Origin: a virus
Lineage: Duplodnaviria; Heunggongvirae; Uroviricota; Caudoviricetes
DNA length: 35,056 nt
Virus record (IMG/VR): IMGVR_UViG_2734482782_000004
Strand: one strand, 5' to 3'
Made by a program: the position numbers and the translations under genes. Below, one piece after another: positions 1,363 through 35,056 of the stretch (the stretch's first letter is position 1; each line of letters opens with the position of its first letter). The notes beneath the pieces were generated by a model. It was given only the letters and a program-made list of their open reading frames with translations, searched no databases and was not told where the DNA came from.

Positions 1363-1446
1363 TTAATTTCGATTATTTTTCCCGGATGGAAAATTCTTAG
1401 AAACCGATCACATACAGCTGCATTTATTAAGGTTATCATCCGTTTC

Positions 1447-1533
1447 GCTGAAAAACATAACCCATAAAATGCTAGCTGTACCAGGAACCACCTCCTTAGC
1501 CTGTGTAATCTCCCTTACACGGGCTTATTTTTT
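1447..1533 (+). ncRNA. cyaR: CyaR (RyeE) small regulatory RNA; its 3' terminator overlaps the prophage attL core
   Basis: 87-nt stretch gctgaaaaacataacccataaaatgctagctgtaccaggaaccacctccttagcctgtgtaatctcccttacacgggcttatttttt matches CyaR as I recall it; ends in hairpin plus U-tract; positioned between yegQ and the ogr end as in K-12. Confidence 0.75.
1507..1533. repeat. attL core (27 bp), identical to attR core
   Basis: aatctcccttacacgggcttatttttt is present at 1507..1533 and again at 34554..34580; it is the reverse complement of the P2 core AAAAAATAAGCCCGTGTAAGGGAGATT as I recall it. Confidence 0.85.
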
Positions 1534-1597
1534 ACGTACAACAAATTGAAATAAAAGGATTTATTTCTGGTCACGTCCACACATTGACCACATCGAC

Positions 1598-1621
1598 AAA
1601 AAAGCCCCTCGACTGAGGGGC
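1598..1621 (-). terminator. Rho-independent terminator downstream of ogr
   Basis: Minus-strand hairpin gcccctc-agtc-gaggggc (plus-strand 1604..1621) followed on the minus strand by TTTTTT (plus-strand A-run 1598..1603). Confidence 0.6.
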
Positions 1622-1634
1622 TTCCTGTTTGTAA

Positions 1635-1853
1635 TTACATCCACATAATTTGCTGCCCTGACGGCAACGGGTGCGGCCTTACGGCATGGACTTCTCCCGG
1701 CTTCACGATGTATCGCTGTACCGACTCATAAGTGATGAACGTGGCACTGCAATTCACGTTCTGGCACTGATGATAACGCTCTTTTGTCGTGTCAGTGATA
1801 TAGCGGCTTGTACGCGCATGTGCGGCATGCTGGCATAAAGGACAATGAAACAT
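1635..1853 (-). CDS. ogr: Ogr late-gene transcriptional activator (C4 zinc finger)
   Basis: 72-aa product MFHCPLCQHAAHARTSRYITDTTKERYHQCQNVNCSATF...; CxxC...CxxxxC zinc-finger spacing; internal ATG of the 93-aa track ORF gives the P2 length; first gene inside attL as in P2 prophages. Confidence 0.85.
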   Translation of the reverse strand: MFHCPLCQHAAHARTSRYITDTTKERYHQCQNVNCSATFITYESVQRYIVKPGEVHAVRPHPLPSGQQIMWM

Positions 1854-8602: not shown

Positions 8603-9355
8603 ATGACCAAGACAAATAGGCACAACTTTCCTCCAAGCGTTGTAGGTAAGGTAGCAGAGCGCGCTGCATATATTTGTAGCAATCCCTCTTGTCATAGGGT
8701 AACAATCGGCCCGGATCAATTGGCGGAAAATCTTTCTATCAAGACGGGTGAGGCGGCGCATATCTGCGCGGCGAGCCCTGGCGGACCGCGCTATGACATG
8801 TCTCAGTCAGAAACAGAGCGGAAGAGCATAAAAAATGCTATATGGTTGTGCGGAGCTTGTGCTGATTTAGTTGATAAGAATGGCGGTATGGGCTACCCCG
8901 CCGAGTATTTGCGAAAATGGAAACGTGACCACGAATCACTAATGAAGGAGTGCTTGGAGGGAGGAAAGAGGCTAATTTTTCAATTTCTATCGCATCGCCC
9001 AGACGAGAAAATTGCTCTGCGGGTGATCCATTTATTGGAAGACAAGAGTTCTCTTTATCTGCCATATGCTCAAGAGGATCCAGCACGAGTCTCGGATTCT
9101 TTGAAGGAGCTCCGACTCTCTCTTACGGCGATTCGCTCCGAGATTGCACCTGAGTCTCCGCTATCGTTGATCGTCGAGTCAATTGTCCGTGCGTGCCGAC
9201 ACTATATGAATTCAACGCCAGATCGGCCGGGCATTGATGAGCTTAACTTCTCCCTCGGCGCAGTTCGTAAGGTAGTAGGAATTAACATCGGAGAACTATT
9301 GAAACACTATGAAATCCAGGTGAGTCACGAATTGCATTCTATTATTCCTAAATGA
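8603..9355 (+). CDS. Cargo protein with N-terminal HNH-like nuclease motif and a C-terminal domain of unknown function (candidate defence effector)
   Basis: 250-aa ORF in AT-rich DNA at the Z/fun position; residues 25-93 read C-x4-C-H ... GEAAHICAASPGG ... N-x4-LCGAC ... DKN, resembling the HNH beta-beta-alpha-Me fold with a Cys4 zinc knuckle; own terminator at 9378..9412. Confidence 0.6.
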   Translation: MTKTNRHNFPPSVVGKVAERAAYICSNPSCHRVTIGPDQLAENLSIKTGEAAHICAASPGGPRYDMSQSETERKSIKNAIWLCGACADLVDKNGGMGYPAEYLRKWKRDHESLMKECLEGGKRLIFQFLSHRPDEKIALRVIHLLEDKSSLYLPYAQEDPARVSDSLKELRLSLTAIRSEIAPESPLSLIVESIVRACRHYMNSTPDRPGIDELNFSLGAVRKVVGINIGELLKHYEIQVSHELHSIIPK

Positions 9356-9516: not shown

Positions 9517-10302
9517 TTACATCAAAAATAACTTACAATATTTGTAAGTTGCTTTGTGTACGAAAATGCTTGCGTCAACTCTTGACATCGGATTTTTTAA
9601 TATCCCTCCGGAACTTCCCTTTCCATGTCTCGCAAGATACCCTAACAGTTCAAAGCTATTAGCAGTGCCCGTGAATCTGCTGATTTCCTTTTCATCAATA
9701 TTAAAAGCCATGCTAATTACTTTATCTCTCTGATATTTCTTGCCTTTATAAGTGTCGGGAAAATTTAGTATACCTTTCACATATTTATCATATACATATT
9801 CTCTAATTGTTTCCCACAAACGATAAAGATTAACCCAATCATCACCTAAGGCACACATACCTAAAACAACACGTAAGGATTCATGTTTAGATGATAAATT
9901 AATTAATCGTGAAAAATTATCAGCGCGAGGGTGTGGTTGCTGTATGTCATGGAAATTAAAGGGGTTTACCTGAGTTACATCCATTGATTTAAAGCCGCAT
10001 ATTTCCGAGTAATTAATGCCTTCACTTCCAGAAATAGAAAGAGGACCAAAAGATTGATATCTTTCAAAACCATAAAGAACGCTAAGTGCGCCGTTCATGA
10101 GCATCAACAAACCTTTTAACTTGGAAGCCAATTCATTTGGGTCGGATATGATATTCAAATGAGGAGATGAAAGTAAATGAATATCTGTTTGCCCTAAATC
10201 AGAGTCAGAATCATCATTTATAGAGAAATCATTCGACCAAACTCCACATAATCTTTTAACAAATCCTGTAGATGGAGTAAGTAAAAAACTATAATCGTAC
10301 AT
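9517..10302 (-). CDS. Hypothetical cargo protein, 261 aa, no recognisable motif
   Basis: Long ORF in strongly AT-rich DNA, where chance ORFs of this length are unlikely; ATG at 10300..10302 preceded by GAGGGA about 8 nt upstream; convergent with the HNH-like gene. Confidence 0.55.
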   Translation of the reverse strand: MYDYSFLLTPSTGFVKRLCGVWSNDFSINDDSDSDLGQTDIHLLSSPHLNIISDPNELASKLKGLLMLMNGALSVLYGFERYQSFGPLSISGSEGINYSEICGFKSMDVTQVNPFNFHDIQQPHPRADNFSRLINLSSKHESLRVVLGMCALGDDWVNLYRLWETIREYVYDKYVKGILNFPDTYKGKKYQRDKVISMAFNIDEKEISRFTGTANSFELLGYLARHGKGSSGGILKNPMSRVDASIFVHKATYKYCKLFLM

Positions 10303-10656: not shown

Positions 10657-11340
10657 TTACAGTTTATCGCTTATGAATCCATGAGCCTTAAATGTCCTGA
10701 CAAAATCCTCATAGCGCGCAATCATCCCCCCCGATGTTTCACGCACATTTTGCTGATGAAAGCGGAAGTTTGCCTCCGATTCAACACTCTTACTCTTCCA
10801 GTCATGGGGAAGGCTTAGCATCACTGGCTTTCTGTTCGGGTAATCAACACTCATAAATGGTAGCGTACTATCTACGTATGCGGTCATAGCGTCCAAAAAA
10901 GCGTCTTTCGCACCATTCACTTCAGTATTGAATAACCGATACTTTTCACCGCTAAATTTTTCAGCTTTTTCAATGTTTAAGCAAACATCTTGCCGTATAC
11001 CGCTCAGGTAGCTCTGCTCAACCCATTGAGTAGTATCCTCATAAGGCAGCAATTCAAGGATCTGGTCGATTATCTTCAGATCATGTTCATCTTGCTTTTT
11101 TTTTACAGGGTCCTCAGTAGATTCATTGGATGTGTGGTAAACGTTGGTGGTCTGATTAATATCCCGCCCGGCCTGGTTCACATCACCCTCGGTTTTCTTT
11201 GCCTTCTGTTTTATGTTGTTTTGCTGTCTGATTCTATATGTAACACCGCCCCCAATACCAAACAGTGCCAGTACGCCGACTAATAAGCTAAGATAGGTAG
11301 CTGCGTCTGCACCAAAATGTGCATTAAGCCATTCAGTCAT
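10657..11340 (-). CDS. Cargo membrane-anchored protein, 227 aa (N-terminal TM helix, then soluble domain); candidate single-gene defence or abortive-infection effector
   Basis: ORF with hydrophobic segment AATYLSLLVGVLALFGIGGGV at residues about 12-33; own extended -10 promoter and own terminator; AAGGA ribosome-binding site. Confidence 0.6.
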   Translation of the reverse strand: MTEWLNAHFGADAATYLSLLVGVLALFGIGGGVTYRIRQQNNIKQKAKKTEGDVNQAGRDINQTTNVYHTSNESTEDPVKKKQDEHDLKIIDQILELLPYEDTTQWVEQSYLSGIRQDVCLNIEKAEKFSGEKYRLFNTEVNGAKDAFLDAMTAYVDSTLPFMSVDYPNRKPVMLSLPHDWKSKSVESEANFRFHQQNVRETSGGMIARYEDFVRTFKAHGFISDKL

Positions 11341-31390: not shown

Positions 31391-31693
31391 TCAGCTCCTT
31401 TTATCGTTAAGTTTCCTGGATACATCAGCGCAATAACTGGCAAGTTCTGTCGTTAATTTTGTCAGTTCATCCACTGAGGAAATTTGCTTGTGGAATACAG
31501 CGCGTTTAACAAGTAAATTGACCACATCAGACAGAAGGTTTAATTCATTCTGATAAATCGCGATAACAGATTCAGTTATGTCGCGTTTTTCTTTATCAAG
31601 GCAAAGTTGAATAAGAGACAAATCGCCATTTTTCATAACGGCGATTTTTAAGGCGTTATTCAGTAATACAACTGAATGAGAACAGGACATCAA
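31391..31693 (-). CDS. Hypothetical protein (P2 orf81 position)
   Basis: 100-aa ORF in the early operon, AT-rich. Confidence 0.5.
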
Positions 31694-33460: not shown

Positions 33461-34474
33461 ATGGCAATCAAAAAACTCGATGATGGTCGATATGAAGTGG
33501 ACATCCGCCCTACTGGACGTAATGGAAAACGCATCCGTAGGAAGTTTGATAAGAAAAGCGAAGCTGTCGCTTTCGAGAAATACACGTTGTACAACCACCA
33601 CAATAAAGAATGGCTATCAAAACCAACAGACAAGCGACGTCTGTCGGAGCTGACACAGATCTGGTGGGATTTAAAGGGTAAACACGAAGAGCATGGGAAA
33701 TCTAATCTTGGAAAAATTGAAATCTTCACAAAAATAACGAATGACCCATGCGCATTTCAAATTACGAAATCGCTTATCAGCCAGTACTGCGCCACCCGAA
33801 GAAGTCAGGGTATTAAACCTTCGAGTATCAATCGTGATTTAACATGTATTAGCGGCATGTTTACAGCCCTGATTGAAGCGGAGTTATTCTTTGGTGAGCA
33901 CCCTATCAGAGGGACAAAAAGGCTTAAGGAGGAAAAACCAGACACAGGCTATCTCACGCAGGAAGAAATTGCCTTACTGCTTGCTGCTCTTGACGGCGAC
34001 AATAAAAAGATTGCGATTCTTTGCCTGAGTACTGGAGCACGTTGGGGAGAAGCAGCTCGTTTGAAAGCAGAAAATATCATCCATAACCGCGTCACGTTTG
34101 TTAAAACGAAAACAAACAAACCACGCACCGTCCCGATCTCAGAGGCTGTTGCCAAAATGATCGCGGATAACAAACGAGGTTTTTTATTCCCTGATGCTGA
34201 TTACCCTCGCTTCAGACGAACAATGAAAGCAATAAAACCGGATTTGCCAATGGGGCAAGCCACACATGCATTAAGGCACAGCTTTGCCACTCATTTCATG
34301 ATTAATGGAGGAAGTATTATCACGCTACAACGGATACTAGGTCACACGCGGATTGAGCAAACTATGGTTTACGCTCATTTTGCGCCAGAGTACCTTCAGG
34401 ACGCCATTTCTCTTAATCCGCTAAGAGGTGGTACTGAGGCCGAGAGTGTCCACACAGTGTCCACAGTAGAGTAA
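33461..34474 (+). CDS. int: Tyrosine integrase
   Basis: 337-aa ORF, P2 Int length; C-terminal R...HxxR...Y catalytic pattern (ALRHSFATH ... MVYAHF); 80 bp upstream of attR. Confidence 0.88.
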   Translation: MAIKKLDDGRYEVDIRPTGRNGKRIRRKFDKKSEAVAFEKYTLYNHHNKEWLSKPTDKRRLSELTQIWWDLKGKHEEHGKSNLGKIEIFTKITNDPCAFQITKSLISQYCATRRSQGIKPSSINRDLTCISGMFTALIEAELFFGEHPIRGTKRLKEEKPDTGYLTQEEIALLLAALDGDNKKIAILCLSTGARWGEAARLKAENIIHNRVTFVKTKTNKPRTVPISEAVAKMIADNKRGFLFPDADYPRFRRTMKAIKPDLPMGQATHALRHSFATHFMINGGSIITLQRILGHTRIEQTMVYAHFAPEYLQDAISLNPLRGGTEAESVHTVSTVE

Positions 34475-34553
34475 CGTTTAAGGGCTTTCAGTGGTAATTT
34501 ATGCCGCTCAAACCCGCATTGTACCGTTGAAAGCCCCTACTGGTGCCCCCCTA

Positions 34554-34580
34554 AATCTCCCTTACACGGGCTTATTTTTT
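34554..34580. repeat. attR core (27 bp)
   Basis: Exact copy of the attL core, 80 bp downstream of the int stop. Confidence 0.85.
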
Positions 34581-34738
34581 ATGCATAAGCCCTATCCCTG
34601 GTCACCGTCTTCCATTGACCACATCGATAGAATCTCCCTTCATAGCACGATGCCTTTCACGTAACGGCATCGTGCTCGCACAGGTTCCGGCTAAGCACAA
34701 CCAGAACGCGCATGTTTGACGCTTACCAAAAAATATTC

Positions 34739-35056
34739 TCACTCTCCACATTTGAATGTCAGACGAGCGACGCCATGTAATCCTGCACCTTCTGTCTTCA
34801 GGTCAACTATCTGCATTTTTTTGCCCTGAGTAACACAGAAATGGGCTGCATCATTTTTTACTATATTTTCTGCACCAGATATTCTGCCCCTGGCTAAAGA
34901 AGCTTCGGCTTCGGTGTAGTATTGGTTATCGAGTTTACGCTGAATATTACTTTTATATGCAAGACCAAATTTACCGATACTTGTCTCATCATTATGCACA
35001 GCACAACCAGACATAATAAAAATACTAATTAATGATATAGCAGCTATCTTTTTCAT
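34739..35056 (-). CDS. yegR: Putative lipoprotein YegR (host gene, right flank)
   Basis: 105-aa ORF with signal peptide and lipobox (IFIMSGC); recognisable as E. coli YegR; start codon at the window edge. Confidence 0.75.
   Translation of the reverse strand: MKKIAAISLISIFIMSGCAVHNDETSIGKFGLAYKSNIQRKLDNQYYTEAEASLARGRISGAENIVKNDAAHFCVTQGKKMQIVDLKTEGAGLHGVARLTFKCGE

Follow-up and report, generated by a model that had tools for sequence, protein, structure and literature searches.

The segment of host DNA just outside attR of this P2-like prophage (34598–34628) is very probably the decayed remnant of the ogr-side attachment arm, more precisely of its arm-type site for the Int N-terminal domain, left by an earlier P2-like prophage. 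Homology to the phage arm, colinearity with it, presence throughout Escherichia coli and absence from outgroups are all observed, and they bear out the proposal, made in a preliminary description of this DNA, that the integration site already held the scar of an older P2-like prophage. Judged by sequence comparison, the E. coli ‘empty’ P2 site appears to be itself derived, consisting of the worn remains of earlier P2-like integrations, and the 0.84-kb cyaR–yegS spacer, yegR included, appears to be bounded by att-like ends. The locus is, in our view, a clear but unremarkable example of an attachment site that phages have used more than once.

The window, by which we mean the whole 35,056-nt stretch of DNA that was analysed, carries in order yegQ/trhP (1–1362), cyaR, a complete P2-like prophage and yegR, whose start codon is the window’s last position. 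The left prophage end is formed by ogr and D, both on the minus strand, and the right end by int on the plus strand (Table 1). The 3′ half of the cyaR terminator is the P2 attachment core, and the 27-bp core AATCTCCCTTACACGGGCTTATTTTTT has two exact occurrences in the window and no more. The flank under study comprises the 158 nt from the attR core to the yegR stop codon. Within the prophage, a cargo ORF between the tail genes (8603–9355, plus strand) matches the PADLOC candidate defence protein PDC-M68A and also endonuclease-type effector models (E = 3.8e-24); for two further cargo ORFs on the minus strand (9517–10302 and 10657–11340), no Pfam or PADLOC match was found. The prophage early region holds at 31517–31528 a 12-mer, ATTGACCACATC, with the arm-site repeat (90% over 20 nt, one gap).

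Table 1. Positions, strands and supporting basis of the features at and around the cyaR attachment site in the window.
Feature	Position	Strand	Basis
cyaR small-RNA gene	1445–1530	+	Rfam RF00112, 100.7 bits, E = 3.4e-19
attL, 27-bp P2 core AATCTCCCTTACACGGGCTTATTTTTT	1507–1533	+	Exact repeat of 34554–34580; equals the attP core annotated in P2 NC_001895
IHF-binding region, ogr-side arm of resident prophage	1532–1565	+	P2 RefSeq annotation transferred; near-identical sequence
Int arm-type binding site, ogr-side arm	1569–1596	+	P2 annotation ‘Int, P arm’ transferred
ogr / F-operon intrinsic terminator	1601–1624	-	P2 annotation transferred
ogr, late-gene activator of resident prophage	1635–1853	-	72-aa Ogr by translation; P2 annotation
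Integrase gene of resident prophage	33461–34474	+	Pfam Int_N and Phage_integrase
int-side Int arm-type site	34440–34466	+	TGTCCACA at 34447 and 34458; P2 annotation transferred
attR copy of the 27-bp core	34554–34580	+	Exact repeat of attL core
Core-proximal spacer atgcataagccctatcc	34581–34597	+	Aligns with arm IHF-site region, 16-column gap (MAFFT, arms and vestiges)
Vestige, very probably a decayed Int arm-type site	34598–34628	+	24/31 match to 1567–1597
10-mer AATCTCCCTT	34631–34640	+	Equals first 10 nt of core
Perfect 11-bp-stem hairpin agcacgatgcc / ggcatcgtgct, yegR 3′ region	34644–34676	.	Sequence
yegR, 105-aa predicted lipoprotein, narrow family PF27694	34739–35056	-	RefSeq annotation of matching loci; homologue search

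The flank segment ctggtcaccgtcttccattgaccacatcgat and its prophage counterpart ctggtcacgtccacacattgaccacatcgac align without a gap and are equal at 24 of 31 positions. Both segments named in the preliminary description exist, its coordinates being off by 1 nt in the flank (34599–34629) and by 2 nt in the prophage (1569–1599), and the 15 consecutive identical bases that it reported are confirmed: the 15-mer CATTGACCACATCGA is found only at 1582–1596 and 34613–34627 in the whole window. With up to two mismatches allowed, 0.15 chance matches to this 15-mer are expected, and two or more matches arose in 1 of 100 shuffles. When the 158-nt flank is compared by blastn with the rest of the window, the exact 15-mer is the top match (E = 0.004), and a gapped match spans 50 nt at 76% identity (E = 2.5e-4; flank positions 13–61 against 1562–1610). 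Both copies lie 3′ of an identical core and in equal orientation, the prophage copy 33 nt and the flank copy 17 nt away. Against the arms of P2-like prophages from other genera, the flank of E. coli empty sites reaches z = 10.1. Next to its core the flank holds colinear arm-homologous sequence of the attL-side type, the mark of a prophage remnant.

By transfer of the P2 annotation, the prophage segment in this comparison is the Int arm-type binding site. Its placement between the attL core and the ogr terminator had been correctly recognised; in the P2 RefSeq record, the ogr-side annotations start with an IHF site nearest the core, followed by an Int binding site and then, farthest out, the ogr terminator. 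The prophage arm site is built of direct repeats, CGTCCACA at 1574 and TGACCACA at 1585, which are 11 bp apart and fit the published consensus for P2-type arm sites, tgTGGaCa (PMC3448106). Two TGTCCACA repeats also occur on the int-side arm, within the 3′ end of int, which points to a phage-wide recognition motif. Equal arm organisation is seen in Wphi, whose core differs, and in prophages of the P2 type that occupy cyaR in genera such as Citrobacter and Enterobacter; database matches to window positions 1547–1640 come from many P2-like phages at 71–99% identity. Because the arm site is a phage element that also stands beside other cores and in other hosts, the direction of transfer would have been from phage to host.

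Compared with the ogr-side arm of P2 attP (the ‘P arm’, NC_001895), the vestige is colinear outward from the core and preserves TGACCACA (34616–34623) together with the adjacent TCGA exactly, the following two bases completing an unbroken TCGATA, but it lacks the first repeat, the IHF region and the ogr terminator; ogr itself is also missing from it. The first-repeat position reads CCGTCTTC or GTCTTCC, equal to the repeat at 3 of 8 positions without gaps. The vestige sequence CATTGACCACATCGATA is identical to Citrobacter prophage arms. Longer, rarer E. coli haplotypes keep ...acggattgatccc... where P2 has aaggatttatttc, that is, 12 more IHF-like bases, with a partial ...ggattgatccc... of the IHF region. 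In the common haplotype that region is deleted, so that the arm site lies at the shorter distance from the core. A functional arm is expected to have two tgTGGaCa-type repeats (TGTCCACA on the plus strand) about 11 bp apart and an IHF site between core and arm; the vestige has one repeat left and, in the common haplotype, the 16-column gap at the IHF position. From this composition, it would not be expected to work as a functional arm. The 17 nt around the second repeat equal phage arms exactly and the neighbouring bases are heavily decayed, an unevenness less readily explained by uniform neutral decay than by a younger layer or by some constraint. A dispersed repeat of the REP or ERIC kind is not indicated, as the segment has a median of one place per E. 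coli genome and a maximum of 2. In the common attB haplotype, the core end and the first 12 flank nt (34568–34592) form an 8-bp inverted repeat, GGGCTTAT ... ATAAGCCC, around a T-run; it is missing from attL and imperfect in the long flank haplotypes.

Just past the vestige, the preliminary description had read AATCTCCCTT as a partial core. The 10-mer is present and could be a remnant of another core or a chance match: about a dozen further exact 10-mers are common to flank and window, and the position is polymorphic in E. coli, with aatcctcctt in K-12 and B and aatccccctt in other strains, so that the match is inseparable from chance.

At a coverage of at least 80%, the flank is present in 5375 of 5426 complete E. 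coli genomes (~99%), in single copy. A composite query of the left and right flanks gives one continuous match in most of these 5426 genomes, and several unoccupied sites are 100% identical to the joined flanks. Of the IMG/VR P2-like prophage junctions with an identified core, all 79 have the vestige after the attR core. Some IMG/VR prophages at cyaR have a different int-side arm and a core starting AAACGCCCTTACACGGGC..., which suggests a second P2-like lineage at cyaR with only ~21 nt of core shared.

That K-12 harbours a P2 remnant and that P2 uses the cyaR 3′ end is already established. Barreiro and Haggard-Ljungquist reportedly described the K-12 P2 remnant in 1992, and the annotation of a K-12-like genome shows it at the cyaR locus. 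The alignment with the K-12 region and with other strains that had been suggested as a check places the vestige beyond this remnant. The order in the K-12-like genome is cyaR core, near-P2-identical arm, ogrK, D′ fragment, truncated core TACACGGGCTTATTTTTTT and then the vestige; because the vestige is distal to the truncated core, it would be a separate, older layer. In E. coli B and other strains without ogrK the vestige stands directly after the core, and ogrK and the D′ fragment are missing from the window’s flank and from unoccupied sites. The K-12 remnant (locI; ogrK plus yegZ, D′ fragment) shares with the vestige its attachment site, the kind of phage and the process, integration and then deletion that spared the ogr-side end. 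It is, however, ~630 bp long with a near-identical arm, an intact ogr and part of D, and is confined to K-12-like strains, whereas the vestige is ~50 bp long, strongly decayed, without genes and present in ~99% of E. coli. The earlier link to ogrK/yegZ is thus sound as to the presence of a K-12 remnant at this locus, but the vestige is no part of it.

The outgroup set consisted of at least 120 loci from species-representative genomes (Enterobacteriaceae), located by a cyaR body pattern; E. fergusonii, E. marmotae and E. whittamii are not among the loci listed. In 68 of the 120 listed species loci cyaR is followed directly by yegS (start within about 300 nt), and Escherichia sp. E1V33 is among them. 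An anchor, TTTCATCCTGTTCT, lies a few bases past the cyaR T-run in Enterobacter, Lelliottia, Pseudenterobacter and Escherichia sp. E1V33. Where the junction is ancestral in this way, no arm-like sequence is present (z < 4), and z ≥ 4 was reached in only 16 of 121 loci tested. The vestige is thus absent from relatives that keep the unoccupied ancestral junction, as expected of a scar. According to the preliminary description, finding the same sequence in empty-site strains without any phage-related context would count against a scar. Empty-site strains of E. coli do carry it; that expectation was ill-framed, because the outgroups, which lack the vestige, show the E. coli ‘empty’ site to be derived.

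Other genera carry unrelated sequence at this position. Enterobacter spp. have an insert of ~550 bp between cyaR and yegS with an apparent minus-strand ORF, and Citrobacter spp. have a different gene there, preceded by a terminator-like hairpin; such unrelated inserts make the cyaR 3′ end look like a hotspot for insertions in general. The E. coli cyaR terminator (1517–1526) reads TTACACGGGC, as does the P2 core, and most other genera have TTACGCAGGC or TTACGCGGGC. By this reading, E. coli would have a phage-core-type 3′ half of the terminator, compensated by a T in the 5′ half.

The far end of the spacer also has the appearance of an attachment site. In E. coli, 842 nt separate the anchor TTTCATCCTGTTCT from the 3′ end of the cyaR search pattern, and directly before the anchor, ungapped, stands AATCCTCCATACTTGAACTGACTTTTT, in which 17 of 27 positions agree with the cyaR 3′ end (binomial P about 4e-4); the core-like 27-mer of strain SCPM-O-B-8794 agrees at 20 of 27 (P about 3e-6). 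To the left of the E. coli 27-mer, aatttat...ccattgcaagctcc-tggtgg aligns with the int-side arm of the prophage (34495–34548) at a z of about 5.9, a value reached by 1 of 1000 dinucleotide shuffles; when both strands of the whole window are scanned, no place scores higher than this arm. Scored alone, the int-side end of SCPM-O-B-8794 gives z = 4.3 and the second-best place in the scan. The far boundary of a scar should carry a core copy and the other phage arm, and both are recognisable ~0.3 kb past the window end, the int-side end being short, gappy and outside the window. With an ogr-side arm on the left and a decayed int-side arm and core on the right, the cyaR–yegS spacer bears the signature of an integrated element. 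The preliminary description’s estimate of a scar of a few tens of base pairs suits the arm vestige (~50 bp) but not the whole scar, which would extend 0.84 kb to the core upstream of yegS.

The int-side homology is seen only by targeted local alignment with shuffles and not by phage BLAST: a BLAST search of the yegR–yegS spacer against 50,697 phage records returned no P2-like phage except one with host flank. In a manual reading of the decayed core bases, SCPM-O-B-8794 differs from the host type at 2 positions and from the P2 type at 4; the E. coli copy is uninformative as to crossover polarity from host- versus phage-type core bases. Used as a BLAST query against phages, the flank gave two good matches, ‘Phage TP’ and vB_EcoM-720R8, both with host DNA, the latter record continuing to yegR, yegS and beyond. 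A match between window positions 34686–34734 and the right end of phage 186 (30517–30565, non-coding DNA beyond a terminator; 77.6% over 49 nt, E = 0.5) was taken as probably due to chance.

Comparison with close relatives suggests that the scar did not arise at one stroke. E. coli and SCPM-O-B-8794 have in common yegR (91% identity), the distal spacer and the decayed attR, and the 100–140 nt next to the cyaR core are non-homologous between them; SCPM-O-B-8794 keeps the IHF part of the arm, followed by unrelated sequence. In E. albertii the core is followed by 45 nt of arm, cut off within the first Int repeat, and Huaxiibacter and one metagenome-assembled genome have arm vestiges without ogr next to cyaR. 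Because the arm vestige differs in the sister species while the far end is shared, the scar is probably layered, from several events, whose number and order we infer. Escherichia sp. E1V33 has a clean junction, yet at yegQ it is the sister of scar-bearing SCPM-O-B-8794 (95% identity), so that loss or recombinational replacement of the allele must be assumed. In E. albertii, a manual reading places a fragment of an IS3-family transposase gene after the arm, about 56–420 nt after the cyaR pattern.

Between the att-like ends no residual phage genes are recognisable, and yegR stands alone. We considered yegR as phage cargo and found nothing that speaks for it; the gene may have come with an old element or have been inserted later. 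A tblastn search against phages gave only the two flank-containing records, the IMG/VR matches, each with at least 96% identity, are all located at contig ends or close to them, and a strong PHROG match most likely stems from prophage calls that overshoot. Distant homologues come from an IS-rich island and from a chromosomal neighbourhood devoid of phage genes, and besides flank overshoots no YegR homologue was found inside phages in the phage records or IMG/VR. Just past the yegR stop codon, some E. coli have an additional stretch of ~170 bp (980-bp matches; R14 locus 587–750), which is also found in SCPM-O-B-8794, about 250–470 nt after the cyaR pattern. It is missing from most strains and from the window, where it would fall between 34730 and 34739, and by manual reading it can encode an ORF of roughly 40 aa on the yegR strand.

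Several other explanations of the likeness between flank and arm need to be weighed. A short motif that recurs by chance in AT-rich intergenic DNA would account for the fact that only 31 bp are clearly alike, 7 of them differing, and that exact 10-mers are common between flank and window. We consider this highly improbable, given a 15-mer unique to two places (E = 0.004 to 2.5e-4 within the window), the agreement in position and orientation relative to the core, the contrast between z = 10.1 against other P2-like arms and the z < 4 of ancestral junctions, the longer E. coli variants that carry colinearity into the IHF region, and the matching int-side end near yegS. The transfer could also have run in reverse, a P2 ancestor having taken up host DNA to the right of attR by aberrant excision, with its arm derived from the E. 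coli flank; such excision gives equal order and orientation beside the core, and the E. coli flank is ubiquitous. Against this stand the occurrence of the arm site in P2-like phages with different cores or hosts (Wphi; Citrobacter and Enterobacter prophages), the repeat on the int-side arm inside int, the lack of arm-like sequence in species with the ancestral cyaR–yegS junction, and the fact that the degraded copy, with one repeat destroyed and the IHF region deleted, is the host’s. This direction strikes us as very unlikely. To the idea that the vestige is simply the end of a K-12-type ogrK/yegZ cryptic remnant, trimmed further in this strain, we attach practically no credence: the locus is shared and K-12 is known to hold a P2 remnant, but K-12 has both, its own arm next to cyaR and, after a truncated core, the vestige beyond, and E. 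coli B and other strains that lack ogrK still show the vestige directly after the core.

A host element under constraint, whether a yegR 3′ untranslated region, a terminator or a protein-binding site, would be compatible with phage origin, and we judge it unlikely. Flank positions 27–52 are near-invariant in 23 E. coli haplotypes, with ~22% of flank columns varying, 17 nt equal phage arms amid decayed neighbours, and the RNA downstream of yegR is unusually structured (minus strand 34581–34745, -60.4 kcal/mol, z = -4.4). Other flank blocks are, however, as invariant, and such a run in 158 nt is not rare among 23 haplotypes; per-column variability at the intact repeat is not exceptional, and we rejected selective constraint on it. 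No promoter or terminator was called in 34400–35056, CyaR is the only Rfam family in the whole window, and the equivalent stretch is decayed in the sister species SCPM-O-B-8794. The hairpin in the yegR 3′ region is followed by no U-tract and is thus not a canonical terminator; no terminator call covers it, and no phage counterpart of it was found. In a variant of the constraint explanation, the vestige is a functional relic whose intact TGACCACA half-site might still bind Int, affecting integration or excision. Taking the vestige again as a decayed arm left by an earlier prophage, we infer that it most likely has no present function, because one repeat and the IHF site are lost and the sister-species stretch has decayed. 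With one Int half-site left 35 nt from the core, some influence on integration or excision is still conceivable. In its fullest form this would make the ‘bacterial’ side of locI a stack of domesticated P2-like relics, running through yegR to the decayed attR, with a half-site, intact in every E. coli, that still binds P2 integrase, which we think improbable. If such binding did occur, it might help to make locI a strongly preferred site or bias excision, and attR, with int-side arm, core and relic arm site, would behave as a partial attP.

The history that we propose begins with recombination between the attP core of a P2-like phage and the cyaR 3′ end, which would have placed cyaR, core and arm in series on one side of the integrated element. 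Later deletions would have taken the phage genes, the ogr terminator and most of the IHF site, leaving ~50 bp of arm fused to older DNA. This arm-stub allele would then have become fixed in E. coli and would today form the ‘bacterial’ side of the attachment site. The core doubles as the cyaR terminator and stayed intact, so that P2-like phages could later go on integrating there, and such integrations would have given the K-12 ogrK–D′ remnant in one lineage and the intact prophage of the window. The simplest reading is one of repeated integration at the intact core, each followed by deletion that left a stub of the new arm. Repeated use of the site, as first suggested, is supported by the vestige, the K-12 remnant, the resident prophage and the differently truncated arms elsewhere.

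Serial scars at genes for small stable RNAs are a well-known pattern. Williams’s ‘Traffic at the tmRNA gene’ of 2003 reportedly describes degenerate att and gene-fragment repeats that mark old islands at tRNA and tmRNA genes. As in those serial scars, the 3′ end of a small stable RNA gene is attB here and the phage supplies a replacement 3′ end; displaced, decaying old 3′ ends mark the outer boundary, and layers build up. The case of cyaR differs in that the gene encodes an Hfq-dependent small RNA and that the 0.84-kb scar encloses a single, non-phage-like gene. At the sdsR locus of Salmonella a small-RNA gene is likewise a recurrent phage attachment site (PMC3333887). The phenomenon is shared, but small RNA, phages and host differ, and an arm vestige is not part of the passage in which that source describes the locus (PMC3333887).

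The current view of the P2 integration mechanism is unchanged by these findings. For resident P2-like prophages, the vestige possibly amounts to an extra 31-bp imperfect direct repeat outside the core. Prophage-boundary predictors overshoot at cyaR, where yegR has acquired a PHROG family and appears at IMG/VR contig ends, and the comparison of a flank with outgroup junctions, which tells a true unoccupied attB from an old scar, is reusable. The orphan gene yegR would lie inside an att-bounded insertion that other enterobacteria lack. More broadly, the preferred P2 site of E. coli, usually taken as plain host DNA, appears to be built of older phage-derived sequence, and an ancient scar, the K-12 remnant and intact prophages together would document the layered reuse of a small-RNA gene.
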